NCBI GenBank assembly: GCA_046331425.1
Contig: JAXLQU010000031.1
Span: forward strand, 1-45,229
Length of the DNA: 45,229 bases
Direction of reading: 5' to 3'
Source of the DNA: Acidobacteriota bacterium
Lineage (GTDB): Bacteria > Acidobacteriota > Polarisedimenticolia > J045
Shown in pieces: positions 19,787 to 39,336 of this stretch; positions within the stretch are counted from its first letter, which is position 1; the number at the start of each line of letters is the position of its first letter. The notes under the pieces are model-generated. The model searched no databases and was not told the origin of the DNA. It saw nothing but the letters and a program-made list of their open reading frames with translations. Made by a program: the position numbers and the translations under genes.

Positions 19787-19815
19787 ATGGACGACACACA
19801 CTCTCTGGAGGCTCG

Positions 19816-23374: not shown

Positions 23375-23613
23375 CTTGCCGAGAGTTTGCCGAGTTCATT
23401 GATTCCTTCATCGGTGGTGGGCTTTCCAACGATGAAGCGCAGGAGTTTCACCGCCACTTGGCGGTGTGCAGCGATTGCGTCAACTACATCGACACCTATC
23501 GGCGCACGATCGCCATGAGCAAGCGTGCCTTCGAGTCGATGCCCGAAGCCTCGGTGCCCGAGGATGTGCCTGAAGATCTGGTGAAAGCGATCCTGGCATC
23601 CCGCAAGCCTTGA
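23371..23613 (+). CDS. Short cytoplasmic ZAS (zf-HC2, HxxxCxxC) anti-sigma factor
   Basis: 80 aa, no TM segment. It contains C3, and H29-LAV-C33-SD-C36 (HRHLAVCSDC) is the zinc anti-sigma motif. ATGA overlap with the sigma-factor stop. Confidence 0.65.
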   Translation: MTCREFAEFIDSFIGGGLSNDEAQEFHRHLAVCSDCVNYIDTYRRTIAMSKRAFESMPEASVPEDVPEDLVKAILASRKP

Positions 23614-23657
23614 TCGAGAGCGTCCTGGCCCATCGAGCCTGACCAACATGCTGATGA

Positions 23658-26318
23658 GTGGCGAGCGCGACTCCGGCAGGCGTAGCATCCTGCGTTGCTG
23701 TGTTGCCGACACTCGCATCTCGGCCTGGGCGAGGACCTCAAACGACTCCTTCACCTTTCATCGATCGACTTCGACGTTGGCTCGGCCCCGTCTTCGCCGC
23801 ATCGCTGTTCGGGGCGGCACTCTGGGCGATTCATCGCGAGCTGGGACCGTATCATCACGGGCAAATCGTCGAGGCGCTGCAGCAGATACCGGCGTCGCGC
23901 ACACTGCTCGCGCTGCTCCTGACGGTGACCAGCTATCTGCTCCTGACGCTCCTCGATCAGGTCACGCTTCGTGCGATCCACGTAACGCTTCCCTATCGCC
24001 GCGCCAGCTTTGCCTCGCTCGTGGCCTACGCCTTCAGTCATAGCGTCGGCTTTGCCGCGGTCACCGGCGCGGCAATCCGATACCGCTTGTATTCGGCCTG
24101 GGGACTTTCAGCGTCAAAGATCGCGCAGTTTCTGGTCTTGGGAACCACTGCTTTCTGGCTCGGTTTTGCGCTGGTCGGCGGCGTTTGGTTTGTCAAGGAC
24201 GCGAGCGACGTAAGCGAGAGTTCTCTTCTTCGAACGCCTCGCGCGACGTTCTGTCTTGGACTGCTGCTGTTGTCGCTGCTCTCGATCTATCTGGTGGTGT
24301 GCCTTCGGCGGCGCAGGTTCCGCGTTCTGCCCTGGCGCGACTACGATCTCCCGCTGCCGTCGCCGTCATTGGCGATTCTGCAAACCGGCATTTCAGCACT
24401 CGACTGGATCGCGAGTGCTGCAGTGTTGTGGGTCCTGCTCGATCAACCCGAGATGTCGTTGTGGCGATTCCTTGGCGTGTTTCTGCTCGCTCAAGTGGCG
24501 GGAGTGATCAGTCAGATACCGGGCGGGCTGGGTGTGTTCGAATCGTTGGTGCTGACGTTGACCGGGGATGCCCACCCCACGCCTGCGATCGCAGCGGCGT
24601 TGATCTCGTATCGGTTGCTCTATTACGTGCTGCCGCTCGTCACCGCTGCCGCGCTCTTCAGCGCACGTGAGACCTTCGCTCGCTGGCCGAGGGTCGAGCG
24701 GGTCTCGCGAGCAATGGGGCGATGGGCTTCGGGCGTGATTCCCACGCTGCTGACTGTGACCACCTTCGCTGCTGGAATCGTCCTGCTCGTGTCGGGCGCG
24801 ACACCGGCGGAGAGCTGGCGTCTGAAGTGGCTGCGCGATGTCGTCCCGCTTCCTGTGATCGAACTCTCGCACTTTCTCGGCAGCCTGACCGGAGCCGGTC
24901 TCCTGCTCTTGGCTCGCGGCCTTCAACAACGCCTCGATGCTTCCTACACGCTGACCGCGCTGTTGCTTGCCGCCGGGGCAGGCTTTTCACTCGCCAAGGG
25001 CGTGGACTATGAGGAGGCGTTGTTCTTGGTCGGCATGTTGGCGCTGTTGTTGCCGTGTCGCCGCCACTTCTATCGACGCGCATCGCTGTTCGCCGAACCG
25101 TTCACGCCGGGCTGGCTCGTGGCCGTAGCGGCCGTGATCGCCGCCACCGCTTGGATCAGTGTGTTCGCGCACAAACATGTCGAGCTCGCTGGCGATTTGT
25201 GGTGGACATTCGCATTCAGAGGCGATGCCTCGCGCACGCTCCGCGCGCTGACCGGTGTGGTGGCACTCGTTGCCGTGATCGGTACGGCGCGATTGCTGCG
25301 GCCCGCACCGGCCCGGCCTCAGCTCCTCACCAGCGACCAGAAACCGCGACTGCTTCAGGCGCTTGCGAACTGCTCCGACACGTCGGCCAACTTGGCGTTG
25401 CTGGGCGACAAAGCGGTGCTCTTCAGCCCAACCGGGAACAGCTTCGTGATGTACGCGGTCGAGGGGCGGAGTTTCGTAGCACTCGGCGATCCTTCGGGGC
25501 TCCAGAGCGAGATCGCGGACTTGGCCTGGCGGTTTCGCGAGTTGGCCGACCGGCATGGCGGCTACACCGTGTTCTATGAAGTCTCCGCTAGCCGATTACC
25601 GATGTACCTCGATATGGGTTTGGCGCTAGTCAAGCTAGGCGAGGAGGCGCGGGTCGCGTTGGATGAGTTCTCGATTCAGGGCAACTCCGGCAAGTCGTTT
25701 CGCAGCGCCATCAACAGCATGACCAAGGACGGATGCAGTTTCGAGATCGTCGCGACGGCCGACGTTCCGGCTCTTCTTCCCACGCTTCGTGCGATATCGG
25801 ACGCCTGGTTGGCGAGCAAGAACACGCGGGAGAAGGGGTTCTCACTGGGGTACTTCGACGAGGAGTATTTGGCGAACTTTCCGATGGCGGTGGTCCGTCA
25901 GCACGGCAGGCCGATTGCGTTCGCGAACATTTGGGCCGCCTCTGACGGCGGTGAGTTGTCGGTCGATCTGATGCGGTTTGCCGAGGATGCGCCCAAGGCA
26001 ACGATGGACTTTCTGTTCTTACAGACGATGCTGTGGGGCAAGGAGCGGCACTACCGGTGGTTCAACTTGGGAATGGCACCGTTGTCCGGACTGGAGGCGC
26101 ATCGGTTGGGGCCACTCTGGGGGCGCGTGGCGTCGTTTGTCTTCCGACACGGCGAGCACTTCTACAACTTCCAGGGCTTGCGTCAGTACAAGCAAAAGTT
26201 CTCCCCGGATTGGCAGCCGCGATATCTGGCGTTTCCGGGTCGTCTTACGTTTGCTCGAGTGTTGCTCAACGTTGCTTCCTTGACTTCCGGGGGTTTGAGA
26301 GGCGTGGTGACCAAATGA
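23658..26318 (+). CDS. mprF: Aminoacyl-phosphatidylglycerol synthase / flippase (MprF/LpiA family: LPG_synthase_TM + DUF2156 lysyl-tRNA-dependent transferase domain)
   Basis: About 14 TM helices over ~540 aa, then the C-terminal DUF2156-like domain (...FVMYAVEGRSFVALGDPSG...YTVFYEVS...YLDMGLALVKLGEEARV...FSIQGNSGKSFRSAIN...). Confidence 0.8.
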   Translation: MASATPAGVASCVAVLPTLASRPGRGPQTTPSPFIDRLRRWLGPVFAASLFGAALWAIHRELGPYHHGQIVEALQQIPASRTLLALLLTVTSYLLLTLLDQVTLRAIHVTLPYRRASFASLVAYAFSHSVGFAAVTGAAIRYRLYSAWGLSASKIAQFLVLGTTAFWLGFALVGGVWFVKDASDVSESSLLRTPRATFCLGLLLLSLLSIYLVVCLRRRRFRVLPWRDYDLPLPSPSLAILQTGISALDWIASAAVLWVLLDQPEMSLWRFLGVFLLAQVAGVISQIPGGLGVFESLVLTLTGDAHPTPAIAAALISYRLLYYVLPLVTAAALFSARETFARWPRVERVSRAMGRWASGVIPTLLTVTTFAAGIVLLVSGATPAESWRLKWLRDVVPLPVIELSHFLGSLTGAGLLLLARGLQQRLDASYTLTALLLAAGAGFSLAKGVDYEEALFLVGMLALLLPCRRHFYRRASLFAEPFTPGWLVAVAAVIAATAWISVFAHKHVELAGDLWWTFAFRGDASRTLRALTGVVALVAVIGTARLLRPAPARPQLLTSDQKPRLLQALANCSDTSANLALLGDKAVLFSPTGNSFVMYAVEGRSFVALGDPSGLQSEIADLAWRFRELADRHGGYTVFYEVSASRLPMYLDMGLALVKLGEEARVALDEFSIQGNSGKSFRSAINSMTKDGCSFEIVATADVPALLPTLRAISDAWLASKNTREKGFSLGYFDEEYLANFPMAVVRQHGRPIAFANIWAASDGGELSVDLMRFAEDAPKATMDFLFLQTMLWGKERHYRWFNLGMAPLSGLEAHRLGPLWGRVASFVFRHGEHFYNFQGLRQYKQKFSPDWQPRYLAFPGRLTFARVLLNVASLTSGGLRGVVTK

Positions 26319-27748
26319 TGCGAATGACGTTCGGATTGTTGCTCTTGGCGTCGAGTTTCGTAGCGAGCGCAGGCACGCAAATGTCAAACAACGAGTCGCT
26401 GACATTCGGTGCGTTTGGCAAGGTCGCGCTGTATCGCCCAGCCTCTGCCATCGAGGATGTCGTGCTATTCGTTTCCGGAGACGGCGGCTGGAATCAAGGC
26501 GTGGTCGACATGGCAAAGCAACTGGTCTTGATGAATGCGCTCGTGCTGGGCATCGACATGCCGCGATTTGAAACCGCATTGAAGGCTGAGAAAGGCGCAT
26601 GCGCCTACCCTGCCGCCGAGTTCGAAGCGTTGAGTCAGTACGTCCAAAAGAAGCTCGACTTGCCGGACTACAAGACCCCGATTTTGGCGGGCTACTCTTC
26701 AGGCGCAACTCTGGTGTACGCGCTCTTGGCGCAAGCACCGGGCGGAACCTTCGCCGGCGGGTTGAGCCTCGGCTTTTGCCCCGACCTGGAGGTCACCAAA
26801 CCACTGTGCAAAGGAAGTGGCCTAACGTTCGTGCCGTTGCCCAAGAAGAATGGCTTCGTCTTCGATGCCAACCCTGCACTCCCCGCTCCGTTTCACGTGC
26901 TGCAAGGCGACATCGATCAGGTCTGTCAGCCCGAGGCGACACGCACCTATCTTTCCAAGATCCCAGCGGCAAAACTGTATTGGCTCCCGAAGGTCGGACA
27001 CGGCTATTCGGTCCCCAAGAACTGGTTGCCTCAGTTCCGCGACGCCTATCGTGATCTAAGAACGGTGAGCGCTCCCGATCGAACGCAAGCACACACGTCG
27101 CTCGGTACGACGGGCGCATCGACGCCATCAGTCGATGATCTGCCGCTGGTCGAGGTGCCGGCCGTCGGGGAAGTGCAGGACAGCGTGGCGGTGATTCTCA
27201 CCGGAGATGGCGGCTGGGCCGGACTCGACAAGCAAGTTGCCGGCGCGTTGGCCGCGCGCGGAATCCGCTGTATCGGCTGGAATTCCCTGCGCTACTACTG
27301 GACCGCGCGGACACCCGACTCAGCCGCGGCCGATCTCGCCCGCATCGTGCTACTGATCCAAGCGCAGTCGCCGGGCGCGAAGGTCCTGCTGATTGGCTAC
27401 TCGCTGGGCGCGGATGTCTTGCCGTTCCTGATCTCGCGTCTCTCCGAGACGCAACGGATGATGATCGCATCGGCCACGTTCATCGCGCCTTCGTTGTCGG
27501 TGGCGTTCGAGTTTCATCTCTCCAACTGGACAGGCGGCTCGCAGGCGGACGCCAAGCCGACGCTCCCTGAGATGCAAAAGCTCGCAGGCATGAAGCTGTT
27601 GTGCCTGTACGGAACCGACGACGAAGACTCGCTTTGCCCCAAGCTTCCGGCAGAACTGGCCAGCGTTCAGAAGATGCCGGGTGGACATCACTTTGGTGGT
27701 GATTACGAGGCCGTTGCCTCTCGGATCATTGCGGCAACCCAGCCGTAG
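26315..27748 (+). CDS. acvB: AcvB/VirJ-like periplasmic aminoacyl-PG hydrolase (tandem VirJ alpha/beta-hydrolase domains)
   Basis: Signal peptide MMRMTFGLLLLASSFVASA. Two related halves each carry a ...V(L/I)..(S/T)GDGGW... block (VVLFVSGDGGWNQGV and VAVILTGDGGWAGLD), plus GYSSGA and GYSLGA nucleophile elbows. Start at Met95 of the track ORF, overlapping the mprF stop (ATGA). This is the known lpiA-acvB gene order. Confidence 0.7.
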   Translation: MMRMTFGLLLLASSFVASAGTQMSNNESLTFGAFGKVALYRPASAIEDVVLFVSGDGGWNQGVVDMAKQLVLMNALVLGIDMPRFETALKAEKGACAYPAAEFEALSQYVQKKLDLPDYKTPILAGYSSGATLVYALLAQAPGGTFAGGLSLGFCPDLEVTKPLCKGSGLTFVPLPKKNGFVFDANPALPAPFHVLQGDIDQVCQPEATRTYLSKIPAAKLYWLPKVGHGYSVPKNWLPQFRDAYRDLRTVSAPDRTQAHTSLGTTGASTPSVDDLPLVEVPAVGEVQDSVAVILTGDGGWAGLDKQVAGALAARGIRCIGWNSLRYYWTARTPDSAAADLARIVLLIQAQSPGAKVLLIGYSLGADVLPFLISRLSETQRMMIASATFIAPSLSVAFEFHLSNWTGGSQADAKPTLPEMQKLAGMKLLCLYGTDDEDSLCPKLPAELASVQKMPGGHHFGGDYEAVASRIIAATQP

Positions 27749-27816
27749 AAATATTCGATGCCGGGCTCTCTCGCAGGAGAACCCGGCATCGTCGAGCGGA
27801 GGGAGGGAGGAGGTCG

Positions 27817-29274
27817 TTATGAAATAGAGAGCGGGAGAAAAACCGTTTCTCCTCGGCGAATCACCTGCACCAAGGCCGTGTCACTGTCTTTGACAGCCAA
27901 GAGCTTCTCGCGCGCCTGTCTGGCATCACTGACCGGCTGACGATTGATGCTCACGATCACATCACCCGACTCGAAACCACTGCGCGATGCAGGGCTGGCC
28001 GGAGCCACGTCGTTGATCAGCGCGCCATCGCCGTCATACTGCAGCGCTTGACGAACTCGCGGCGTGAGATCGGCGAGGGCGAAGCCGAGTTTCCCGCGCC
28101 CATCGCGTTCTGGCGCCGAGGCTTGTTGACCGTTGTCGCGCTCGGCGAGCTTCACCACGAGTTGCTTTCGATTGCCATCGCGCAAGACCGTCAGCCGAGT
28201 GGTTGTTCCAGGTGCCAGCGAGGCGACACGGTGACGAAGGTCGGCACTGGTCTTGACCGCGGTGCTGTCGACCTCGAGCACCACATCGCCGGTCTTCAAT
28301 CCTGCGTCGTCACCAGGGCCGCCAGGTTCAACGGTTCCGACCAGCACACCTCGCTCGGCGCCGAGCTCGAGTGCGCGCGCGAGCGGCGCGTTCACGTCTT
28401 GAACCGATGCCCCCAGGTAACCGCGCACGATTTTTCCGTTGGCCATCAGTTGCTGAGCGATCTCGCGCGCCATGTTCGAGGGGATCGCCAGACCAACCCC
28501 TTGAAAACCACCGCTTCGTGACAGGATCGCCGTGTTGATGCCGATCAGGCGCCCAGCGGTATCGACCAACGCACCGCCACTGTTGCCCGGATTGATCGCT
28601 GCGTCGGTTTGAATGAAGTCTTCATACTCGGTCAGTCGCAAGTTGCTGCGGCCCGTGGCGCTGACGATGCCGGCCGTGACGCTGTGTTGAAGCACTGGGC
28701 CGAAGGGGCTCCCTAACGCCAGCACCCATTGCCCCACCTGGACATTGTCGCTATCGGCGAACGGCACGGTGGGTAGATTCGCTCCATCGATTTTCAGCAC
28801 GGCGAGGTCGGTCATGGGATCGGTGCCGAGGACCTTGGCGGTGCGGCGGTCGCCGTCTGGAAGTAGCACATCGATCGACTCGGCCCCGTCGACGACGTGA
28901 TTGTTGGTCAGGATCACACCGTCTTCTCGCACGATCACGCCGCTACCGAAGGAACCATCTTCCGGTGTGGGATCACCACCGCGATCGCCGCGAAACATCA
29001 TGGGGATACCGTCCCGCGCTGCCTCGGCTCGCTTGGCAACTTGTATCGACACGATGGCGGGATTGACGCGAGCCGCCACGCCCACAAACGGATCTGAGTT
29101 GACGGTGGGGGCGGAGCCGGTTACGGGCGCAGGGAGCTTGGAGGCGCCTTCTCGTGTTTCGTACCACTTGGTTCCCGCTGCGATCGCACCAACGGTGCCG
29201 AGCACGAACATCACTGCGAGTGCACTGGCTCCTAAGAATTGACCTCTTCTTTGCATCATCGTCTCCCTCATCAC
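27817..29274 (-). CDS. htrA: DegP/HtrA-family periplasmic serine endoprotease (trypsin domain + 2 PDZ)
   Basis: Signal peptide/TM. LTNNHVV (His), DLAVLKI (Asp) and GNSGGALV (Ser) form the catalytic triad context. Two PDZ-like regions follow (GVLVGTVEPGGPGDDAGLKTGDVV; GALINDVAPASPASRSGFESGDVI). Confidence 0.9.
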   Translation of the reverse strand: MMRETMMQRRGQFLGASALAVMFVLGTVGAIAAGTKWYETREGASKLPAPVTGSAPTVNSDPFVGVAARVNPAIVSIQVAKRAEAARDGIPMMFRGDRGGDPTPEDGSFGSGVIVREDGVILTNNHVVDGAESIDVLLPDGDRRTAKVLGTDPMTDLAVLKIDGANLPTVPFADSDNVQVGQWVLALGSPFGPVLQHSVTAGIVSATGRSNLRLTEYEDFIQTDAAINPGNSGGALVDTAGRLIGINTAILSRSGGFQGVGLAIPSNMAREIAQQLMANGKIVRGYLGASVQDVNAPLARALELGAERGVLVGTVEPGGPGDDAGLKTGDVVLEVDSTAVKTSADLRHRVASLAPGTTTRLTVLRDGNRKQLVVKLAERDNGQQASAPERDGRGKLGFALADLTPRVRQALQYDGDGALINDVAPASPASRSGFESGDVIVSINRQPVSDARQAREKLLAVKDSDTALVQVIRRGETVFLPLSIS

Positions 29275-29487
29275 GGGCGCTCGAGTCGAACGCTTCGGTG
29301 TCGAGCAGGCCTCTTCAATTTCTGTGCCGCAATGTCAGGAGCTCGCGTCGCCGCCCCTCGAAGGGCGACATCGAGCGGCGAACGGTCGCTGTGTGCAGGA
29401 TCGAACGGGATGCGTGTTTGCGGAGGGTCGCGTACGAGTCGCGTGATGGGTGCGCCGTTTTGCCACCCCGCGCGGAATTGGCTCGCG

Positions 29488-30111
29488 TCAGTCGCGACGC
29501 CCTTCGTCCTCGAGCGCATGCAAGCGTTCACCGAGTTCCGTCATGAACGATTCTTTATCTCCGGTCCACGTGACCGGCTGCCCGACAAACAGGTCGCAGA
29601 AGAACGGAACGAACAGTGCTTCGCCCTTGGGCAGTGCCATGTTCAGGCCGCGAACGTAGATCGGCACCACCGGTACCGCAGGGTGCCGGCGGGCGAGATG
29701 CGCGACACCCGTCTTCAATTCGCCCATCTCGCCGGTCAGGCTGCGCGTCCCTTCCGGAAACAACACCGCCATTCCGCCCTGCGACAAGAACTCGCCGACC
29801 TCGGCCAGCGGATCTCCCTCCGAGACCTTGGGTCGGCGCGACAACGGTATGATCCCGATCACGTTCAACGAGAACCAAGCCACGAGTCGATTGCGCAAGA
29901 AGTAGTCGGCAGCCGCGACCGGTCGAAGCTTCGGCAGAGAACTCAACGGGTAGAGCGACATCAGCACCAGTGCGTCGAGGTGACTGGCATGGTTGGCCAC
30001 GAGAATCGCGGGGCCGCGGTTGGGCAACAGTTCGCGACGTCGCACGTTCAGTCCCAACCCGATCAGCACCAATGGGCGGACGATCAACGCGAAGAACATT
30101 AGCCTCAGCAT
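29488..30111 (-). CDS. plsC: 1-acyl-sn-glycerol-3-phosphate acyltransferase (LPLAT/PlsC family)
   Basis: NHASHLD (HX4D) and FPEGTRS motifs. N-terminal TM. Confidence 0.85.
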   Translation of the reverse strand: MLRLMFFALIVRPLVLIGLGLNVRRRELLPNRGPAILVANHASHLDALVLMSLYPLSSLPKLRPVAAADYFLRNRLVAWFSLNVIGIIPLSRRPKVSEGDPLAEVGEFLSQGGMAVLFPEGTRSLTGEMGELKTGVAHLARRHPAVPVVPIYVRGLNMALPKGEALFVPFFCDLFVGQPVTWTGDKESFMTELGERLHALEDEGRRD

Positions 30112-30118
30112 CGGCGCC

Positions 30119-31069
30119 TCAAAAGTGGAGGTAGCGGATGAAGTGCGTAAACAGCGGCGCTGTATAGATCAGGCTGTTGACGCGGTCGATGACCCCACCG
30201 TGCCCGGGAATCATGTCGCTGGCGTCTTTGACGCCGATGTCGCGCTTGAGCGAGGCCATCGCACAGTCGCCGATGAACCCACCGACACCAATGATCACAC
30301 CGGCGATCAGTGACTGATGGACCGTCAGCGGCGTGAAGTAGGGCGCCGCGAGATACGACAGCAGCACCGTGGTGGCGGCGCCTCCCAGCATCCCACCCCA
30401 GGTTTTGTTGGGACTCACCGTCGGCAAGATCTTGCGACGTCCGAGCGACTTTCCCCACACATACTGCGCCACGTCGTTGAGTTGCGTAAGGCAGACCAAA
30501 AACAGAACCATCGCAGGCCCGGAAGCGGTTGTACCGGTTCTGCTCTCGACGGTCGGCATCACCAACAACCACGCAAGGTGCGATAGGCAGAAGACCATCG
30601 TCATCAAACCCCAGTGGATGGTGCTGATCGCGCGAACGTACCCGGCTGTCTCGCCAATCGTGATCATGCGAAACGGCAAGAAGAGAAACACATAGACCGG
30701 GATGAACAACACGAAGAAGCCGTACCAACCTTGCGCAATCAGATAGTACTGAATCGGTATCGCCAGATAGGCCCAGAACAGAATGCGGCGATCGGCGCGG
30801 CGCACCGCGATCAGTGCGAAGTACTCCTTCAGCGCCAGAAAGCTCACAAACGCGAAGAAGACAACGGTGATACGCCAGGACGACAGCATCGCAACCGCAA
30901 AGATGCCGACCATGATCCACCAGCCCCACAGTCGATCACGCAGCTCGACGAACAGCTTGGGCGTCAGGCGTGACTCGAGGGCGAACACGATCAGGCTGAC
31001 CAGCGCCAACACCGCCACGATCACGCCGAACGTTTTCACCACCAGATCTTCTGCGTGCAACCAGCTCAC
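30119..31069 (-). CDS. cdsA: Phosphatidate cytidylyltransferase (CDP-diacylglycerol synthase)
   Basis: C-terminal signature KTWGGMLGG...GDCAMASLKRDIGVKDASDMIPGHGGVIDRVNSL. The GTG start is behind GAGGTG and overlaps the upstream gene stop (GTGA). The ORF track begins at 31159. Confidence 0.85.
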   Translation of the reverse strand: MSWLHAEDLVVKTFGVIVAVLALVSLIVFALESRLTPKLFVELRDRLWGWWIMVGIFAVAMLSSWRITVVFFAFVSFLALKEYFALIAVRRADRRILFWAYLAIPIQYYLIAQGWYGFFVLFIPVYVFLFLPFRMITIGETAGYVRAISTIHWGLMTMVFCLSHLAWLLVMPTVESRTGTTASGPAMVLFLVCLTQLNDVAQYVWGKSLGRRKILPTVSPNKTWGGMLGGAATTVLLSYLAAPYFTPLTVHQSLIAGVIIGVGGFIGDCAMASLKRDIGVKDASDMIPGHGGVIDRVNSLIYTAPLFTHFIRYLHF

Positions 31070-31680
31070 TGTCGCACCTCGCGCAGCGCGTGGCGGCAGC
31101 GATTGAGTACGGTGAGCCCCGCAAGCAGCGCAACAGCGACCAGCACGATCGCACTCCATCGGCCACGCCTGATTCCCAGTCCAATCAGCAGGTAGACCAC
31201 TCCAAACACGAACGCCCGATCGCTCTTGCCCATCGGTCCGTCATAGCGGCGCGATGCACCGACCTGCACAGCGGCAACGCCAGCCAGCTCTGTGAGCGCC
31301 GCCAGAAACACCGCCGCGACCGCGGCCGACGCATGTCGCGGGCCGAGGGCTGCCATCGGCAAATAGAGCGCTGCATCCGAAACGACATCGCTGAGCTCGT
31401 TGAGCAAGCCTCCCAACGCCGACTTCTGGCCATGCTCGCGAGCCAACATTCCATCGATTGCATTCAGCGCCATCCGCGCAAACAGCACGACCGGCGCAAG
31501 CAGGTACCAGCGCGGCTGCCACGGAGCGATGAACCACAACAACAGGCCTGTTCCGATCGACATCAGCATCGCGACGGTGGTCACCTGATTGGCCGTCACG
31601 CCGGCCCCTGCCATCGTTCGGCAGACTGGCCGCAAGAGCGCTTGGAACTTCGGCTTCACATCGTAGATCGTTGCCATCAC
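31066..31680 (-). CDS. CDP-alcohol phosphatidyltransferase family protein (PgsA/Pss-type; headgroup specificity unknown)
   Basis: D-G-x2-A-R-x8-G-x3-D-x3-D motif present as NAIDGMLAREHGQKSALGGLLNELSDVVSD. Multi-TM. Confidence 0.75.
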   Translation of the reverse strand: MMATIYDVKPKFQALLRPVCRTMAGAGVTANQVTTVAMLMSIGTGLLLWFIAPWQPRWYLLAPVVLFARMALNAIDGMLAREHGQKSALGGLLNELSDVVSDAALYLPMAALGPRHASAAVAAVFLAALTELAGVAAVQVGASRRYDGPMGKSDRAFVFGVVYLLIGLGIRRGRWSAIVLVAVALLAGLTVLNRCRHALREVRQ

Positions 31681-31701
31681 GCTCTCCCGTGGCTCGGTCG
31701 C

Positions 31702-32877
31702 CTACAGTACCTCGCGCAAGACGCGCAGCGCGTTCGCGCCCATGACAGCGCGGACCTCGTCATCGGAGAAACCGGCGTCGATCAGCGCCTGCGTCACCTG
31801 CGAAATATGACTTGCGTCGAACGCTGTGGTAACGGCGCCGTCGAAGTCGGAGCCGAGCGCAACATGTTCTATTCCCATCACCGAGGCGGCATGCCTGACG
31901 GCCCGCGCAATGTCCCGCGGACTCGTGCCGCACACGGCCGCCTCCCAGTAGCCGATCCCGACCACGCCGCCCGTGGCGGCAATCCCCTGCAACGCGTGAT
32001 CCGACAGGTTTCGATTGTTGTCGCACGTCCCGCGTACACCGGTGTGCGATGCCACCAGCGGCTTGGTGGCTAGCGCCAGCGTTTCATCGATTGCTTGTGG
32101 CGATGCGTGCGAGAGATCGATCGCGATCCCCAGCCGTTGCATCTGCTGCACGACCTCACGACCCAACGAGGTGAGTCCGCCTCGACCCAGACCGTGGATC
32201 GACCCAGCCACCTCGTTGTCGAAGAGGTGCGCCAAACCCATCATTCGGAAACCTGCGTCGTAGAGCTGTTGCAGATTCTCCAACTTTCCGTCGAGCGCGT
32301 GCAGTCCTTCTACCGCCAGCAGCCCACCCAGAGCCTGGGGCGCGTCCAACCGATGTCGCAGCAGCGCCTCGAGGTCACCGCGCGTTCGCAGCAGCGAGAG
32401 ATCGTTGCGTGAGTCGTTCGACCAGCGCTCCAAGCGCGCACCTTGATACAACGTTCTCTGCACGTTGCTCCGCCAGGTGCCCACCGGCCACAACTGCGCG
32501 ATTGCCAGCGGCGTGACGCGATCGAAATCACTCGCCCTGCGCCCCGTGTCGTTTCCCTCCGGTGCTTGCGACACCGTCGAAAACACCTGCACGGTGACAT
32601 TTCCCTCCCTCAGACGAGGGAAATCGATGTGTCCTCGCGTGCCCCGCTCGGTCAGGTCACGCCGCCAGAATAGTGAGTCGGCGTGTAGGTCGACGATGGT
32701 CAGTGACCGAGTCAGTTCGAGCGCATGCTGGGATATCGGCAACAGTCCTTGCGGTACAACGGCGTTGTAATGCCTTTCAACGCGTGCCGGCAACGGCCCG
32801 AAGAAGATCACAGCAGCCAGCACCAGACAGATTGCTGCTGGGGTGACGAGGTAGTGTCGCAAGAACATTGCGCTCAT
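31702..32877 (-). CDS. Membrane dipeptidase (peptidase M19 / renal dipeptidase family) with N-terminal signal anchor
   Basis: VDLHADSL, GLAHLFDNEV, DLSHAS, ASHTGVRG and GSDFDG blocks. The start (Met24) is uncertain. The ORF track begins at 32946. Confidence 0.75.
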   Translation of the reverse strand: MSAMFLRHYLVTPAAICLVLAAVIFFGPLPARVERHYNAVVPQGLLPISQHALELTRSLTIVDLHADSLFWRRDLTERGTRGHIDFPRLREGNVTVQVFSTVSQAPEGNDTGRRASDFDRVTPLAIAQLWPVGTWRSNVQRTLYQGARLERWSNDSRNDLSLLRTRGDLEALLRHRLDAPQALGGLLAVEGLHALDGKLENLQQLYDAGFRMMGLAHLFDNEVAGSIHGLGRGGLTSLGREVVQQMQRLGIAIDLSHASPQAIDETLALATKPLVASHTGVRGTCDNNRNLSDHALQGIAATGGVVGIGYWEAAVCGTSPRDIARAVRHAASVMGIEHVALGSDFDGAVTTAFDASHISQVTQALIDAGFSDDEVRAVMGANALRVLREVL

Positions 32878-32894
32878 CGAACGACTCGGCGGCA

Positions 32895-33845
32895 TTAGGT
32901 GATGCGGCCGAGCACCCAAGCGCCTTCGTTCCAGAGTTGGATCCATTCCACGAAGCCAGGCACTCGTTCGGGCGGGACAACCGCCACCATCCCGACTCCG
33001 CTGTTGAATTCACAACTGAACTGTTGTCGCGACATCCCCGAGGCGTGTTGCAACGCAAGCTGCAGCGGAGGAAGGTCCCAGTCGTGGTTGAGATCGAATC
33101 CAACCGATGCAGGCAACCAACGAGTCAGACTGCCGGTCAAGCCGCCGCATCCCACGGGAACCAGCGCGTGCAGCCACTGCTCTTTGAGCGCGCGCTGCAC
33201 CGCTCCGAGGTAGGTTCTGTGCCGAGCGTTCATCAGGGTCGCAAATGTGGAATCTGTTCCGGGAACCTGATAATCCGCGCCCCAGCCTCGAGCATCCGCG
33301 ATCGCCCACGCGGCACGGTGTCCATCGCCATGAAGTCCCTGCGACGCCAGCCCCACCAACAGATCGCCTGACCTGACTTGCGATCCATCCAAGATCGAGC
33401 TGCGTGTCGATGTGCCCAGCAGCACCAGACTCAGATCGTGATCATCACCGGCGTTTCCCGTCGCGACCGTTTGCAATCCCGAGATCGCCACCGAATCGGC
33501 ACGGCAACTGCGAGAGATCCCAAGCACCAACTGCTCGCGCACTTCCGCCTCGGGGCTCATCAGAACCAGCGTGGCGTGCAGCGCCGTGGGCACCGCTCCA
33601 CGAGCCCATACCTGGTTGATGAGTTTCGCGACGGCGTCGAGTCCCAATCCGACCCAGCCACCTGTTCGGCGCGCTGTCGACACGCGATCGTTGGCGTCTC
33701 CCATCGCAGAAACCCACACGGCGTCCGCGGCGCCGTTGGGGGCCTCGAAGATCGCAGGTAACTCGGGTCCACCCGAGTGCGGCAATGAATGACGCGTCGA
33801 CTCGACAAGCTCGCAGAGAATTTGGTCTTCCTGCCATTCGCGCAT
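32895..33845 (-). CDS. PurM-like (AIR synthase-related) protein, divergent
   Basis: C-domain-like block LVGLASQGLHGDGHRAAWAI resembles the (S)SGLHSNG(F/Y)SL signature. An N-terminal GLGLDAVAKLIN-like block is present. The DGVGTK-type ATP motif is degenerate. Weak call. Confidence 0.45.
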   Translation of the reverse strand: MREWQEDQILCELVESTRHSLPHSGGPELPAIFEAPNGAADAVWVSAMGDANDRVSTARRTGGWVGLGLDAVAKLINQVWARGAVPTALHATLVLMSPEAEVREQLVLGISRSCRADSVAISGLQTVATGNAGDDHDLSLVLLGTSTRSSILDGSQVRSGDLLVGLASQGLHGDGHRAAWAIADARGWGADYQVPGTDSTFATLMNARHRTYLGAVQRALKEQWLHALVPVGCGGLTGSLTRWLPASVGFDLNHDWDLPPLQLALQHASGMSRQQFSCEFNSGVGMVAVVPPERVPGFVEWIQLWNEGAWVLGRIT

Positions 33846-33970
33846 GTCCCCTCCAACTCGCCTCGGCCGCCGAAGTTTGCGTTGCGAGTGGGGGGCCAGT
33901 CAACGCCGCCGACGCCACCGTGCGCTTGTTCCGGTCGGGGACGTCGGCAGCATGCTGATTGCTTCTATCG

Positions 33971-36900
33971 CTATGGACAGGCTCCACGCGAACTCTGAAG
34001 TCGCGGCCCCTGACTCGCTTGCCCGACAGGCCCTTCACCCGAGCCGTTGGAGGCGCGCACCAGCCACCAGCTCATCGAGCCAGCAGCCGGCTGCTCGGCG
34101 ATGGAAGTCGCCGATGTGGCAGTCGTCGTCAGCCGCGTGCAGGAATCGGCCTCCGCGGTGAGGAGCTTCGGGAGATCGGCACCCGTGCCGCGGTAAAGCG
34201 AATAGGACTGCGCGCCGGTCGCTGCGGTCCAGGAAAGCGCTGTCTTTGTGTCCCAGCGCAAACGCAGCACCTCGCCTGGGCTGGAATTCTGATCACACGT
34301 TCTGTAGCGACAAGACTCGGGGAATGGATGCGAGACCTTGACGTTGTCGACCTGCCACCAGCGATCGTTTGCGCCTCGTGTGTACCGGAACTGGATCACG
34401 ACGTCGCTCGCTCCTGCTGCTTGGGCCGTGATATCGACCACGCGATGATCCGGGTTCGCGCTGGAGGCACCGTTGTAACGAAACACATTGACGAAATCGC
34501 CGCCGGTCAGTGTCGAGCGAACATCGACGTCGCCGCGCTCGTCACCGCCACCTGGACCGAAGTTGAAAAAACTGTCGAACTCGACGGTCACCGAGCTTGC
34601 GGCCGAGAGGTCGAGCGTCGGCGTGATCAAGCGCTCTTCCTGCGACGCACCGGCTCCGGCCGCTTGGCTATCGACAATCGCGAACGGCTCCGTGATTGGG
34701 GGGTTCGCGGCCCGGCCGCCGGGATTACTGGTGGTCCATGTGCTGGCCGCGCCACCACCGCTTCCCTTGTCCTCGACTGTCCAGGTCGTCGGGATTCCAG
34801 CAGCGAAGTCTTCGAAAAGATCGGTCGTGCGTCCGGCCGGCACCTTCTCACCGGTGGGCCCGATAGACAGCGCGTCGGTGAAGACACCTTGATGTGTGTG
34901 AATCTCGACGTTGAACTGAACCGTCGAACCGCAGGCAGCACCCAGCGGAAGGTGAGCGATGAAATGCGGGGCGCTCGAATCGGCGACTCCGTTGCGGGGA
35001 ATCTCAGGATAAAGCCGAGTGTCTTCGATCATCGTGACGCCAGGCGTCACGGGGATCAGCGTGGCGTAGACGCCGGTGAGCGTGTCGGTACCGGTGTTCT
35101 TCAGCGCGACACGGATCGCCGCGGTCTCGCCCTCGTCCCAATGGCCGTCAGCATTGCCGGCACCACCAGCAGCGCAGGAGTCGGAGAGTCGTTGGAATGT
35201 GTCCTTGGCGCAACCCGGTCCGCACGCCTGGGTCAGTGTCAGTTGCAACTCGAAGCCGATGATCGTTCCGGAATCGACTCCGAAATCATCGATCACTTCC
35301 AACTGCCACGTCCCTTGGGCGCTCTTGCCGGCAAACGCAGCGAGCGGCGATTCGGGCTTGAACGATCCAGCATACGGTGGCACTCCAGCGCTGATGGGCG
35401 TGATCGCTGCATCGTCGAACAGCGTATTGTCGAAGTTGTCTCCTGTGTCGCCGCGCCGGCTGGAGAGGTTGACGAACGAACCATCGGGATGTCGCAACCG
35501 CACCGTAACGTTGCCATCGGCGGTATGGGCGAGATTGAAGCGGACTTTGACGTCGACGACCTTGCGCGCATCGTCGAGCACAGCGCGCGCTACATTCGCT
35601 ACAGTGGACTGCGCCGGCATCACGATCGGCGGATCGGGTGAGAGCCTGGCGACAGAGAAGTCGGCACCGGTCGTGAACTGGAAGTAGTTTCCAGCGTTGT
35701 TCGCCACCGCAAGCTGCCCGTAGCGATCGGCGGAGCGGACGGAGTAGTACTGTCTAGTGCATTCCGGCAAGTCGGTCAGTTGGGTCAGGTGCGCGGTCAC
35801 GAGCGACGAATTCAACGCGCTGTTCGTCGCCGGTGGAATCGATGCACCGTAGGTTGCTTGGCTGCTGCTTGTTTCATCGGTGTTCCATTTGAGGTTTGCG
35901 GTTCTTCCCGTGATCGAGTCGGCGCCGACGCCGCTGATTACCGGCGCGGCGCAGTCGATGCTTGCGCTGCGCTGCACCGCTGCGGCGGAGGTTCCACACG
36001 GAGAGGCATCGAGATATTCGACGGTGACGTTGGACAGATCAGTCGTGCTGATTCGGCCGTCGGGTGTCGGCGGGGCCGATGTAGTCGAGATCGAGCCGAG
36101 ATAGGTGCCCGAGCCGGCAGGTGACTCCACCAGAATCACCACCTCAGGTACCGTCTCGACCGGCGAGGTCACGCGAACCGGTTGAGTACCCGAACCGATC
36201 AGATCGGAGTCCGTCACGGTGATTTGAATCGTGTCGGAACAGCTATAGAGAGTTCGGTCCAAGCTGAGCGCTCCAAAGCACGCCTGACCGGTGCAATCGA
36301 TGGTGGCGGTGCGTGTCTTGGTGACATTGGCGGTTCCGCACGAGGAGGCATCGACATACGTCATCGTGACGATCGAGCCGTGCGCCACGTTCAGAACTCC
36401 GTTGTGAATTGGCGGCGCCGACGAGGTAGCGATGGTTCCGGAGAATCGCCCCGAGCCAGCCGGAGATTCAACCAGTGTCACGATTTCGGGCGTGGTCTCG
36501 ACGCTCGAGCTGACAGAGACGACTTGCGTCCCCGCACCGCGCAGATCGGCGTCGTCAAGACGCAGTGTGATCGTATCGGAGCAGTTGTAGACACTGCGAT
36601 CCGATGTGAATGCGCCCGAGCAAGGCAGCGCCGAAGCACTGACGCAACTGCTCCCCGGCCCCATGCACGCGCCGCTCACGCCGATCGGCTGGACGACGTA
36701 ATGGTACGGGCGCTCGTTGGCCACATCGCTATCTGTGAAGCTGGTACCGGCGACCGTGCCGATCACTGCCTTACCCAAATCGCAACCGGCGAACCCTTCG
36801 GCGCGCATCACGCGGTAACTCGTTGCACCGGGAACAGCCGACCATGTCAGGCCGATCTGATTGTTGTTGCTACTCGATGCTGTTACGACCGGTGCCGTGG

Positions 36901-39034
36901 TCGGGCCACCCACACAACCGCTGTTCAAGGGAGTGGGTGTCGGGCAGGCGATTCCGTGTCGATCGAATGCTGCGAAGATCGCGGTCATGTGCGGCGTGCC
37001 GTTGTTGAGATTGCCGTCGTCGTCGTCGGCGGCGAGCCAGAGCGGGTAGGCGTTGGTCGCACCGCAACCGTCGGAGGTGCCGCCGCAGGTGCAGGCATGC
37101 CATGAACCGATGCTTCCGCTCCCTTGGAAGAAGATCTTCGAGCCGAGGTTGAACGCATCCTCGCGAGTCATGTTGAACGGCGCGGCTTGCAGGTCGCGCG
37201 CAACAAGATCCCAGGCCGCTTGCCGACTCGGCGCGGCGGCGCAGTGCACTTGCCGGCCACACGGCCCTGGGCCGGTCGAACAATGCGTGCAAGAAAATCC
37301 GAGCGCGGTGGCCGGAGTGTTGGCCACATGCCCGGCCCAGTCAGCATCACGCACGCCGGAGCAATTGGTATCGCAGTAGGACCCAACCTGCGACTCGTTC
37401 TGGTTGAAGCCGGTACCGTCCGCGGTCCGGCCGCAACCCTTGTCGGTAGTCCAGAAAAATCCGTACGCCACACAAGAAGCCCGCAGGCGATAGATCGACG
37501 CGATGTCAGCGTAGGCTTCGCTCGAATTGCTGAGCGCTCCTCCGCTGTCGTTATCGTCGAGTGCGTGCCCCCATTCGTGGTCGAAGATCGCCGCAATTTC
37601 CCCCGTATTGCGACACCCGCCGCCAGAGCGGTAGAAGTTGATCGTACCGTCGGCAGTCGAGTAGAACGCATTACAGGTGTTGAGAATATTCATGTTGGAA
37701 GTGATCTGTCGGCTGAGCCACAGGTTGTTGGGGAGCCAGCCTCGAGCGACCTCGATCAGTTTGTTGAGCTCATAGAAACCGGATCGAGACGCAGCGGTAT
37801 TGCCTGCCGAGGATCGCCCGGAAACACAGTCGTGTTGCCCGTTCGACCCCGAAAGGTCAAGCGCACCTACCGCGCTCGACTCGTTGACGGGTCCACAGTT
37901 GTCGAACATCCGAACGTACTTGCCGTTGAGCGTTGTCGTGACCGTTCCGCCGTTGTAGTCGAACACGCCTCCCGAGTTGGTGAAATCATTCGGCGCAGGG
38001 AGTCCGGTATTGGCGAACGGCATCGGCTCTCCTGACTGCATCAACCCGCAGGTCGCGTTGGTGGGGCAGATCTCGGTGCTTGTCAGCGGGTAGACGCCGC
38101 CCTTGAGTTCCTGCCCGTCGTAGTGATTGGTGTCTTGAAACGAGAGCACGACGCCGCTGTGGGCGTCGACCAGGACCTGCCAGTTCTCCACGCCAGAGTC
38201 GCGCCGGAATCCGAACGCCCATACCAGGTAGTGGCCGTATCCTTTGCCGATCGGCCCGTCGAACGGCTTCCCCGCTTCGAACTGTTGAGGCGCAAACGGC
38301 ACGATCTCGAGCGTAGGCTCCTGCCAGAGTTGATCTGCAGGCGAGCGCCCCCCGACAAATGTGAAGCCGATGTCGACGGCTTGATCGGCCGAGATCGATG
38401 GCAATGTCGGGACGTTCACCTGCCCCCAGGTTTCAGTGCCCAGCAGAACGAGATTGCCGTGGCTGACCGTTGCCGAAAGCTGCGCATATCGAACAGGTAC
38501 GCCGTTCTTTTGTTGTGGAAGTCGGATCTGCCAAAGGTCGGCAGAGATCTCTGACGCTGTCGCCTCACCGAGTTGAGCGACGTCCAGGCCCAGTGCCTCA
38601 TGGTGTGTCGTCACGAAGCGCGTGACGAGTTCACCGACCAGCGAGGCGTCTACTTTCTTCACGGCATGACCAAGACTGAGCTGCAATCCATCCAGCGTGA
38701 TCGTATTTCCCACGCCGTGACCGGGAATCAGCGGGATCGCGGTCATGATGTTGCTCACAGAACCGGACCGTGGATCGAAATATGTCTGCGCTTGTGGACC
38801 GCTCACCGCCATCAGGCGGTCCCATGCGGCCTGCCGAGTCGCCAAGTGAGATTGCATCGCGCTCGCGGGCCGATGACTCGAGTCAAGGGTTAACTCGGGT
38901 CGGAAAAACTGCCGCGAGGCGAGTGGCGTCTTTGTTGCGGGCTCGGGTTCGAGTGCTAGCGCCGGGTTTGGTGCGAGGTCCGCGCAAATGAGGACAGCAA
39001 ACACTGCGATCGACCGGAGATGAAACTGTCTCAT
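33971..39034 (-). CDS. Secreted multidomain zinc metalloprotease (HEWGH; PepSY/propeptide-like N-region, FN3, tandem duplicated ~105-aa domain, proprotein-convertase P-domain-like, MAM-like domain, C-terminal FN3-like 'ACP' module)
   Basis: Signal peptide MRQFHLRSIAVFAVLICADLAPNPALA at Met61 of the track ORF. Zinc site FDHEWGHALDDND. P-domain-like region ...GTWQLEVIDDFGVDSGTIIGFELQLT. Two near-identical domains are both ~...TITLRLDDADLRGAGTQVVSVSS.../...TIQITVTDSDLIGSGTQPVRVTS.... Confidence 0.8.
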   Translation of the reverse strand: MRQFHLRSIAVFAVLICADLAPNPALALEPEPATKTPLASRQFFRPELTLDSSHRPASAMQSHLATRQAAWDRLMAVSGPQAQTYFDPRSGSVSNIMTAIPLIPGHGVGNTITLDGLQLSLGHAVKKVDASLVGELVTRFVTTHHEALGLDVAQLGEATASEISADLWQIRLPQQKNGVPVRYAQLSATVSHGNLVLLGTETWGQVNVPTLPSISADQAVDIGFTFVGGRSPADQLWQEPTLEIVPFAPQQFEAGKPFDGPIGKGYGHYLVWAFGFRRDSGVENWQVLVDAHSGVVLSFQDTNHYDGQELKGGVYPLTSTEICPTNATCGLMQSGEPMPFANTGLPAPNDFTNSGGVFDYNGGTVTTTLNGKYVRMFDNCGPVNESSAVGALDLSGSNGQHDCVSGRSSAGNTAASRSGFYELNKLIEVARGWLPNNLWLSRQITSNMNILNTCNAFYSTADGTINFYRSGGGCRNTGEIAAIFDHEWGHALDDNDSGGALSNSSEAYADIASIYRLRASCVAYGFFWTTDKGCGRTADGTGFNQNESQVGSYCDTNCSGVRDADWAGHVANTPATALGFSCTHCSTGPGPCGRQVHCAAAPSRQAAWDLVARDLQAAPFNMTREDAFNLGSKIFFQGSGSIGSWHACTCGGTSDGCGATNAYPLWLAADDDDGNLNNGTPHMTAIFAAFDRHGIACPTPTPLNSGCVGGPTTAPVVTASSSNNNQIGLTWSAVPGATSYRVMRAEGFAGCDLGKAVIGTVAGTSFTDSDVANERPYHYVVQPIGVSGACMGPGSSCVSASALPCSGAFTSDRSVYNCSDTITLRLDDADLRGAGTQVVSVSSSVETTPEIVTLVESPAGSGRFSGTIATSSAPPIHNGVLNVAHGSIVTMTYVDASSCGTANVTKTRTATIDCTGQACFGALSLDRTLYSCSDTIQITVTDSDLIGSGTQPVRVTSPVETVPEVVILVESPAGSGTYLGSISTTSAPPTPDGRISTTDLSNVTVEYLDASPCGTSAAAVQRSASIDCAAPVISGVGADSITGRTANLKWNTDETSSSQATYGASIPPATNSALNSSLVTAHLTQLTDLPECTRQYYSVRSADRYGQLAVANNAGNYFQFTTGADFSVARLSPDPPIVMPAQSTVANVARAVLDDARKVVDVKVRFNLAHTADGNVTVRLRHPDGSFVNLSSRRGDTGDNFDNTLFDDAAITPISAGVPPYAGSFKPESPLAAFAGKSAQGTWQLEVIDDFGVDSGTIIGFELQLTLTQACGPGCAKDTFQRLSDSCAAGGAGNADGHWDEGETAAIRVALKNTGTDTLTGVYATLIPVTPGVTMIEDTRLYPEIPRNGVADSSAPHFIAHLPLGAACGSTVQFNVEIHTHQGVFTDALSIGPTGEKVPAGRTTDLFEDFAAGIPTTWTVEDKGSGGGAASTWTTSNPGGRAANPPITEPFAIVDSQAAGAGASQEERLITPTLDLSAASSVTVEFDSFFNFGPGGGDERGDVDVRSTLTGGDFVNVFRYNGASSANPDHRVVDITAQAAGASDVVIQFRYTRGANDRWWQVDNVKVSHPFPESCRYRTCDQNSSPGEVLRLRWDTKTALSWTAATGAQSYSLYRGTGADLPKLLTAEADSCTRLTTTATSATSIAEQPAAGSMSWWLVRASNGSGEGPVGQASQGPRLQSSRGACP

Positions 39035-39336
39035 CACGAGGACTCCCTTGCCCGGCGGGCTTCGGTGCAAATTCCACCGCAGACCGAAGAGCAGGCTGAG
39101 ATCCGCTTGATACAGATCAAGCCGACTTTTTGTCGATGAATTTCCACATTTCCATGTCAGAGAGGTCAACCGTACCCCTGGAGCGAGGCGCGCACTCCCC
39201 GCTCCCACCGACACGCATCCCTAGCTCGGGGGCGCAAACCCCTCATCGAGTCGGGGCCGCGGGTCCGAACCCGGGTCTGGCGCACGCAGGCCGCCCGTTT
39301 CGCGAGCCATGCGATCATGCACTCCTGAGGTGACCA

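Follow-up and report, generated by a model that had tools for sequence, protein, structure and literature searches.

Whether five tightly packed genes serve a single biosynthetic pathway is the question raised by a locus in contig JAXLQU010000031.1 of an Acidobacteriota bacterium (assembly GCA_046331425.1), of which a whole stretch of 45,229 nucleotides was analysed and is referred to here as the window. At 29488-33845, five minus-strand genes encode, in order of transcription, a PurM-like protein, an M19 dipeptidase, a CDP-alcohol phosphatidyltransferase, a CdsA-like protein and a PlsC-family acyltransferase. An earlier note on this DNA had described them as one overlapping operon and had proposed that the first two proteins define a head group derived from an amino acid or a dipeptide. 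The gene identities and overlaps given there agree with the open reading frame (ORF) table, the sequence and the Pfam matches, the largest gap being 21-24 nt. The proposed pathway, however, does not hold up as well: we consider it likely that the block is a co-transcribed, lineage-specific mosaic, in which a conserved YnbA/YnbB/acyltransferase core is accompanied by the PurM-like and M19 genes as neighbours outside the lipid chemistry.

The YnbA/YnbB pair and its active sites

The transferase was compared with E. coli K-12 genes taken from the annotated genome. In BLASTP it matches YnbA (b1408) with 149 bits and 45% identity over 196 of 201 residues (E 2e-50), against 34 bits for YnjF and 27 bits for PgsA. 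It is a member of the CDP-alcohol phosphatidyltransferase family (PF01066, 39.7 bits against a cut-off of 22), and it reaches none of the NCBIfam equivalog cut-offs. The scores are 76.9 of the required 180 for archaetidylinositol phosphate (AIP) synthase (NF040950), 49.2 of 170 for phosphatidylinositol phosphate (PIP) synthase (NF045883), 21.4 of 109 for PgsA (TIGR00560), 21.2 of 107 for PssA (TIGR00473), and 18.5 of 240 for the ClsA type (NF053678); the closest solved structures are PIP synthases. Given the full-length match far above the paralogs and the place of the gene directly upstream of a YnbB-type gene, the transferase is a YnbA ortholog, and not PgsA, PssA, PIPS or Cls. The profile check that the earlier note proposed thus did not return ordinary PgsA, the outcome which, together with separate transcription of the two upstream genes, that note had named as speaking against its reading.

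More than 8000 homologs of the transferase exist, of which the top 120 of the listing share 60-97% identity with the window protein. The canonical signature D1xxD2GxxAR...GxxxD3xxxD4 is replaced in the window by NAIDGMLARx8GLLNELSDVVSD, in which D1 and D3 are Asn. Of the 120 closest homologs, 119 share this variant, NxxDGxxARx8GxxxNxxxDxxxD, with the window protein, as does E. coli YnbA; it characterises the family as a whole and is no defect peculiar to the window. A second motif, RRYDGPxGKSDR, is nearly invariant in the YnbA family. In the published literature on ynbA, ynbABCD, ynbC and ynbD, no functional study of YnbA was found.

The CdsA-like protein is 44% identical to E. coli YnbB (b1409) from residue 9 to its last residue, 316 (E 2e-83). 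By BLASTP, the housekeeping CdsA of E. coli aligns only to residues 183-308, i.e., to the C-terminal 130 residues or so. In a multiple alignment, the YnbB-specific N-terminal half is conserved across phyla, and the stretches FLALKEY and LFWAYLAIP are shared with E. coli YnbB; the N-terminus encoded from the GTG start inside the transferase stop (GTGA) also aligns with that protein. Hence, the homology extends through the half that differs from CdsA, as expected of a YnbB ortholog, and the score against the housekeeping CdsA profile (NF008635) is 89.9 bits where 385 are required.

The equivalents of Asp219, Lys226 and Asp246 of Thermotoga maritima CdsA (TmCdsA) are present in the window protein and that of Asp249 is Asn, with the numbering inferred from the DRxD spacing. 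In TmCdsA, Asp249 is a Mg ligand, and 98% of the activity is lost in the D249A mutant (PMC4083444). Among 59 YnbA-linked YnbB sequences, the Asp249 position is Asn in eight, which include the window, a contig 91-97% identical to it (L001), a sister locus (L003) and the Gemmatimonadota loci. The Asp219 position is Gly in 10 of the 59, as it is in eukaryotic Cds enzymes, and the Glu222 position (K+ site) is hydrophobic or Ala in 58. Loci listed for the variants at Asp249 or Asp219 are L008-L010, L034, L087 and 30119-31069 of the window. The ratio of nonsynonymous to synonymous substitution rates (dN/dS) is 0.05-0.09 in the slowly evolving group formed by ynbA, ynbB, plsC and a downstream degP gene. 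Given this strong purifying selection, the active-site variants of YnbA and YnbB are family- or clade-level features and not decay; they also mean that the exact reaction of neither enzyme can be assumed.

A three-gene lipid module

The acyltransferase belongs to PF01553 and carries HX4D as NHASHLD and FPEGTR as FPEGTRS; it matches the T. maritima PlsC structure 5KYM with E 7e-8. It falls short of the canonical PlsC cut-offs, with 61.8 against 102.95 for TIGR00530 and 21.2 against 501 for PRK15018. It is a small lysophospholipid acyltransferase, with lyso-phosphatidate as the putative acyl acceptor.

YnbA, YnbB and an acyltransferase of about 210-240 residues are adjacent, in varying order, in Gemmatimonadota (L008-L010), Hyphomicrobiales (L011) and Woeseiaceae (L012-L013). 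When metagenome contigs were scanned with the YnbA alignment, 80 further loci were obtained, and these were searched by tblastn with the window proteins. YnbB was present in 63 and the acyltransferase in 52 of these 80. Where YnbA was flanked by at least 2.5 kb on each side, both were found in 21 of 23 loci (in 20 on the YnbA strand), and the remaining two carry YnbC/YnbD-type genes, as in E. coli. The PurM-like, M19 and DegP proteins had no match in any of the 80 loci. The acyltransferase, YnbB and YnbA are a widely conserved three-gene lipid module across bacterial phyla, and the suggestion that PlsC, CdsA and the CDP-alcohol transferase form one route is strongly backed by the adjacency and common orientation of the trio in several phyla.

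Accessory genes in trio loci include YnbC/YnbD, HAD, alpha/beta hydrolase, Lnb_N and LCM genes. A fourth partner recurs beside the trio, a protein of about 177 residues that matches nothing in Pfam; it occurs in 25 of the 80 metagenome loci (L022-L101) and at L011:8179-8712 and is absent from the window.

The transferase and CdsA-like genes share the sequence GTGA at 31069-31066, with the GTG start lying within the TGA stop, as the earlier note had seen. The same 4-nt overlap is found in the sister contig L003 and in loci of two other phyla (L008 and L011), and in E. coli the ynbA stop and ynbB start overlap by 1 nt. These recurrent overlaps suggest that ynbA and ynbB are translationally coupled, and that their products would work as coupled enzymes.

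The PurM-like and dipeptidase genes in a mosaic block

The PurM-like protein scores 111 bits against the purM profile TIGR00878, whose cut-off is 236, and its best PDB and NCBIfam matches are all PurM (E down to 6e-23). The earlier note's description of its motifs as degenerate is correct: none of DGVGTK, NDx4GAxP (here NQ), LDY and GGET is retained in the window protein or in its two close homologs, P0001 and P0002. The protein is shorter than true PurM at either end, with a loss of some 25 residues at the N-terminus, and lacks the residues expected for ATP/Mg chemistry. Only two close homologs, with 91% and 65% identity, were found among 5.8 billion proteins, and a scan of genome contigs returned only the 91% contig and one match that resembles true PurM. 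A true PurM at 34% identity sits in a purF-purM-purN operon. Hence, the protein is probably not an aminoimidazole ribonucleotide (AIR) synthetase.

This gene is also the fastest-evolving of the cluster, with 65% identity to L003 in comparison with 86-91% for ynbA, ynbB, plsC and degP, and a dN/dS of 0.20-0.21 in comparison with 0.05-0.09; it evolves three to four times faster than the lipid genes. Beyond these homologs, an exhaustive search yielded further divergent PurM-like proteins, which have the C-terminal motif W-x3-WNE-x2-W-x-IG in common. In all three distant loci of this kind that were inspected, the gene stands alone and is convergent with genes for a zf-HC2 anti-sigma factor and an extracytoplasmic function (ECF) sigma factor, with gaps of 3-21 nt. 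The PurM-derived protein is ancestrally a neighbour of such a sigma/anti-sigma pair and has lost its ATP/Mg motifs; its gene is a lineage-specific upstream neighbour of the conserved lipid module and no part of it.

The dipeptidase matches PF01244 over the full profile and retains the metal-site motifs HAD, VEG, LSHAS, ASHTG and SDFDG in alignment with 3ID7, which predicts peptidase activity. An N-terminal hydrophobic segment at residues 15-35 or so marks this renal-type dipeptidase as membrane-anchored, with its catalytic domain predicted to lie in the periplasm. The M19 gene is present in L001 and absent from L003, where the PurM-like gene is followed directly by ynbA after a 65-nt gap; it is inserted between these two genes in the window lineage only. 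Outside this lineage, the closest homologs are Sphingomonadales proteins of about 395 residues, 50-56% identical. In both Sphingomonadales loci inspected, the M19 gene has housekeeping surroundings and lies between folA and ribF in the order purE-purK-folA-M19-ribF-ileS-lspA.

Purine-pathway genes thus recur beside M19, as purE-purK in Sphingomonadales and as the PurM-derived gene in the window, which may be coincidence. A tie of M19 to purine chemistry, and through it to the PurM-like gene, was considered on the grounds of the purE-purK neighbours and set aside as coincidence.

Comparison with the sister locus shows how the block is composed. The L003 genes are 65-91% identical to those of the window, and the L003 proteins, when mapped on the window, trace a syntenic backbone: a major facilitator superfamily (MFS) transporter, the PurM-like gene, ynbA, ynbB, plsC and degP, followed by the anti-sigma and ECF sigma factors, a glucosamine-6-P-isomerase-like gene, a MutS-like gene and a BufA/HvfC/MbnB cluster. 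The window has three extras on this backbone: a giant protease gene between the MFS and PurM-like genes, M19, which separates the PurM-like gene from ynbA, and mprF-acvB after the anti-sigma gene. In comparison with the more distant PurM-like loci, ynbA-ynbB-plsC-degP sits between the PurM-like and anti-sigma genes; in L003 the sigma/anti-sigma pair comes right after degP, and in the window it occupies 22700-23607. The degP gene has the same position in L001 and L003 and is absent from the 80 other YnbA loci; as a downstream neighbour, it is conserved within this acidobacterial lineage alone. The five-gene "operon" is therefore a lineage-specific mosaic around a YnbA/YnbB-type lipid module, and its neighbours are independent juxtapositions.

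Within the block, the junctions are tight (Table 1). The PurM-like and M19 genes meet in TAATG, where the in-frame dipeptidase ATG at 32895-32893 overlaps the TAA by 1 nt. The gap from M19 to the transferase is 21-24 nt, depending on whether the latter starts at GTG 31680 or at ATG 31677, which is probably the start. The CdsA-like and PlsC-like genes are separated by 7 nt, and 213 nt separate the PlsC-like gene from degP. A ribosome-binding site, GGAGGGG, lies 3 nt ahead of the ATG of the PurM-like gene. No terminator-like site above chance was found inside the five genes; the sole strong hairpin, at 27756-27791 after degP, is the likely end of the minus-strand transcription unit. Given the spacing of at most 24 nt and the absence of an internal terminator, the five genes are probably co-transcribed, as predicted from the sequence.

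A scan for consensus sigma-70 promoters over 27500-34300 called nothing, 33846-33970 included, and statements on promoters are based solely on conserved intergenic blocks. A TTGAC-containing block 5' of the PurM-like gene is kept in the window and in L003 although the upstream gene differs; a predicted transcript start ahead of the PurM-like gene would fit this block. An alignment of the plsC-degP spacer from the window, L001 and L003 has two conserved pieces. The first lies right after the plsC stop, with the core GGTGGCAAAACGGCGCACCCA at 29447-29467. The second, at 29315-29328, is GGCAC-N5-TTGA, an element similar to a sigma-54 -24/-12 promoter, and the spacer may accordingly hold a separate promoter for degP. 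The bare pattern occurs twice in the window where 0.36 occurrences are expected, and two are also attained in 6 of 100 shuffles, which leaves the element a candidate only. Two other proposals were rejected for the first piece: a structured RNA or attenuator, whose fold is no more stable than that of shuffles (z = 0.29), and a sigma-54 promoter, whose spacing is wrong.

Table 1. Coordinates of the five-gene block, of its surroundings in the window and of the loci used for comparison.
Feature	Coordinates	Strand	Basis
Five-gene block	29488-33845	minus	ORF table and sequence
PurM-like gene	33845..32895	minus	Pfam AIRS and AIRS_C; 316 residues
M19 dipeptidase gene	32895..31702	minus	Peptidase_M19, 240 bits; 397 residues
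YnbA-type CDP-alcohol phosphatidyltransferase gene	31680 (GTG) / 31677 (ATG) to 31066	minus	CDP-OH_P_transf, 39.7 bits; 203-204 residues
YnbB-type CdsA paralog gene	31069..30119	minus	CTP_transf_1 (PF01148), 202 bits; 316 residues
PlsC-family acyltransferase gene	30111..29488	minus	Acyltransferase, 86 bits; 207 residues
plsC-degP intergenic region	29275..29487	minus	Conserved non-coding blocks
DegP/HtrA-type periplasmic serine protease gene	27817..29274	minus	TIGR02037, 450 bits against cut-off 416
Strong hairpin between convergent degP and acvB	27756..27791	minus	15-bp stem, 10 G-C pairs, then T-containing tail
Region upstream of PurM-like gene, candidate promoter	33846..33970	minus	Conserved TTGAC-containing block
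MbnB/TglH/ChrH-family enzyme	18130-18981		Bufferin-type cluster
DUF2063/HvfC	18962-19810		Bufferin-type cluster
BufA-like precursor	19816-20100		Bufferin-type cluster
Sphingomonadales M19 loci	L019:3647-8093, L020:3991-8105		purE-purK-folA before, ribF-ileS-lspA after
Distant divergent PurM-like loci	L016:7001-8850, L018:1647-3538, L102:1100-2900		Neighbouring zf-HC2 anti-sigma and ECF sigma genes

The wider neighbourhood contains further genes. On the plus strand, 22131-27748 holds, head to tail, the glucosamine-6-P-isomerase-like gene, the ECF sigma gene (22700-23371), the zf-HC2 anti-sigma gene (23371-23607), mprF (23658-26318) and acvB (AcvB/VirJ, to 27748). The latter two, genes for aminoacyl-phosphatidylglycerol (aminoacyl-PG), seem to have been appended to the ECF sigma operon. 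The giant minus-strand ORF at 33971-39214 encodes 1747 residues and combines HEWGH, a motif like that of zinc proteases, with a P domain of proprotein convertases. The window carries this ORF and L001 a part of it, and its absence from L003 indicates an insertion between the MFS and PurM-like genes. The earlier note was right in placing the block next to this protease and to MprF/AcvB, but both are lineage-specific, being missing from L003. A cluster of the bufferin type, for ribosomally synthesised and post-translationally modified peptides, occupies 18130-20100 and is syntenic with L003.

Proposed route, alternatives and known systems

From the observed orthology, trio conservation and variant motifs, we infer an order of reactions and a kind of acceptor. 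The acyltransferase would make phosphatidate, or particular molecular species of it, from a lyso-lipid; the YnbB-type CdsA paralog would convert this with CTP into CDP-diacylglycerol (CDP-DAG); and YnbA, made in step with YnbB, would move the phosphatidyl group of CDP-DAG to an acceptor. The acceptor is probably anionic or phosphorylated, since the closest characterised relatives of YnbA use inositol phosphate, YnbD-type phosphatases often partner YnbA elsewhere, and the conserved RRYDGPxGKSDR loop is basic. With such an acceptor, the product would be a minor specialised phospholipid or a lipid anchor, and not bulk phosphatidylglycerol or phosphatidylserine. The predicted folds of the five proteins, of the PurM, M19, PIPS, CdsA and PlsC types, are fixed by sequence matches to solved structures. 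The PurM-like and M19 proteins are most likely passengers on the transcript and take no part in the lipid chemistry.

Several observations weigh against this mosaic reading. Asn occupies two of the four signature Asp positions of YnbA, which makes its transferase chemistry a prediction, and with Asn at the Asp249 position of the window YnbB, CDP-DAG synthase activity is not assured. The PurM-like gene is adjacent to ynbA in only two independent acidobacterial lineages, so that the polarity of gain and loss rests on outgroups. In addition, the PurM-like gene is under purifying selection (dN/dS 0.2) and hence has some function. Finally, the tight packing (TAATG and a gap of 21-24 nt) makes it almost certain that the PurM-like and M19 genes are co-expressed with the lipid genes, and co-expression can reflect function.

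Among the alternatives, the one that survives best concerns the product, and we regard it as unlikely: YnbA and YnbB would make a sugar linked through diacylglycerol pyrophosphate, an anchor of the MPIase type, with a sugar-1-phosphate and not an alcohol as the YnbA acceptor. Overproduction of E. coli YnbB yields more of the glycolipid MPIase (PMC6362211; PMC7018664; PMC11413397), and membranes with CdsA or YnbB form N-acetylglucosamine-pyrophosphate-diacylglycerol (GlcNAc-PP-DAG) from phosphatidate, CTP and GlcNAc-1-P (PMC6362211; PMC11413397). The translational coupling of YnbA to YnbB in several phyla agrees with such a product, and the variant metal signature together with the invariant basic RRYDGPxGKSDR would suit an anionic acceptor. 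However, published work assigns the formation of compound I to CdsA/YnbB themselves and never tested YnbA, and the acceptor in this proposal comes only from reasoning on motifs. The closest profiles, moreover, are those of synthases that use inositol phosphate, and a polyol-phosphate acceptor would agree no less well with the YnbD-type phosphatase that is often a partner.

A broader form of this proposal is a long shot. YnbA-type enzymes would not be alcohol transferases at all but would transfer phosphatidyl groups to a phosphorylated acceptor, such as a sugar-1-phosphate, and the trio would be a dedicated pathway, across many phyla, for MPIase-type anchors or another unrecognised class of phospholipid. 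In this lineage, it would have been drawn into an envelope-stress block with DegP, the ECF sigma factor, MprF/AcvB, a periplasmic dipeptidase and a PurM-derived pseudoenzyme.

A single pathway of five genes is quite improbable; in it, a head group derived from an amino acid or a dipeptide would be built, activated or recycled by the PurM-like protein and the dipeptidase and attached to CDP-DAG by the transferase. In its favour, the genes lie on one strand, no internal terminator was found, and no junction is wider than 24 nt; the transferase fits no characterised subfamily; the aminoacyl-PG genes mprF and acvB are nearby; and the PurM-like and M19 genes are both under purifying selection. Yet neither of the two genes on which this pathway depends occurs in any of the 80 other YnbA loci or in the loci of named taxa, and M19 is absent even from the sister locus. 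The PurM-like protein is without DGVGTK, NDx4GAxP and GGET, and its relatives occur away from lipid genes, alone beside an ECF sigma/anti-sigma pair. As for the dipeptidase, its nearest homologs have the folA-ribF context described above, and its signal-anchor places it in the expected periplasmic location, whereas CDP-DAG chemistry faces the cytoplasm, to which the cavity of TmCdsA opens (PMC4083444). The adjacency of mprF-acvB is not conserved either.

A housekeeping role for the three lipid genes, as the PlsC-CdsA-PgsA (or PssA) route to bulk phospholipid, is very unlikely. Their Pfam domains are those of the housekeeping enzymes, and many homologs are labelled PgsA by JGI pipelines, but the equivalog cut-offs are missed by the wide margins given above for CdsA, PgsA and PlsC, and the CdsA-like protein matches YnbB over its full length and CdsA only in the C-terminal third. 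E. coli, furthermore, has ynbA and ynbB besides cdsA and pgsA. Although E. coli YnbB makes CDP-DAG in vitro, it does not replace the role of CdsA in bulk phospholipid synthesis (PMC6362211; PMC7018664) and does not complement a cdsA knockout (PMC6362211).

A genuine, merely divergent AIR synthetase placed by chance is the least credible account of the PurM-like gene, for all that its best PDB and NCBIfam matches are PurM, given a score under half the purM cut-off, conserved motifs replaced in all three members, the missing N-terminal residues, an evolution faster than that of its neighbours, and a place outside any pur operon, in contrast to the 34%-identical true PurM.

The locus itself is not a new system. 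Its interest is that it places the little-studied YnbA/YnbB pair of E. coli in a module that has an acyltransferase of its own and whose three genes are conserved from Acidobacteriota to Proteobacteria and Gemmatimonadota. In both membrane enzymes of this module, YnbA and YnbB, metal-binding positions are altered family-wide. Such a self-contained route, leading from lyso-lipid through phosphatidate and CDP-DAG to a final lipid in parallel to housekeeping synthesis, implies a lipid product whose identity would fill a gap in bacterial lipid biochemistry and may bear on the synthesis of the MPIase anchor. The locus also calls for caution, as its tight packing reflects successive insertions into one syntenic block and not a five-step pathway.

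In comparison with known systems, the two upstream proteins resemble enzymes of other pathways. The PurM-like protein has the AIRS and AIRS_C domains of AIR synthetase, and its nearest relatives are true PurM; it differs by its lost motifs, its shortened termini, the lack of a pur context and the association of its group with ECF sigma/anti-sigma genes. The dipeptidase resembles the M19 membrane dipeptidases Sco3058 and human DPEP1 in its full-length Peptidase_M19 match and intact metal-site motifs, and differs from them by an N-terminal membrane anchor, which is also present in the Sphingomonadales homologs of about 395 residues that have no link to lipid genes.

For the transferase, PIP and AIP synthases (5D91, 6H53) are the best-scoring characterised profiles and structures, and the length of about 200 residues and the six-helix layout are alike. 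However, the window protein is far below both cut-offs, Asp1 and Asp3 are Asn in the YnbA family, and no inositol-phosphate synthase gene lies near the window transferase. [quoted passage not shown]

Closer counterparts are the trio loci of Gemmatimonadota, Hyphomicrobiales, Woeseiaceae and Pseudomonas protegens ("cluster 25"), where the same three families are adjacent and co-oriented. Their proteins are 60-67% (YnbA), 31-60% (YnbB) and 31-67% (acyltransferase) identical to those of the window; these loci differ by their accessory genes, and none has a PurM-like, M19 or DegP gene. The P. protegens cluster (YnbA, YnbC-like, PAP2, PlsC and CdsA) is annotated only as a "membrane phospholipid remodelling/biogenesis module" (PMC13541209). 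Finally, the ynbABCD cluster of E. coli has the same order of ynbA then ynbB, an overlapping stop and start, 45% and 44% identity to the window proteins, and the same YnbA variant signature. E. coli YnbB keeps the Asp equivalent to Asp249 of TmCdsA, which is Asn in the window. The E. coli pair is followed by YnbC (an alpha/beta hydrolase with Methyltransf_20) and YnbD (PAP2 with a dual-specificity phosphatase), neither of which is present in the window, where a PlsC-family acyltransferase is found instead.

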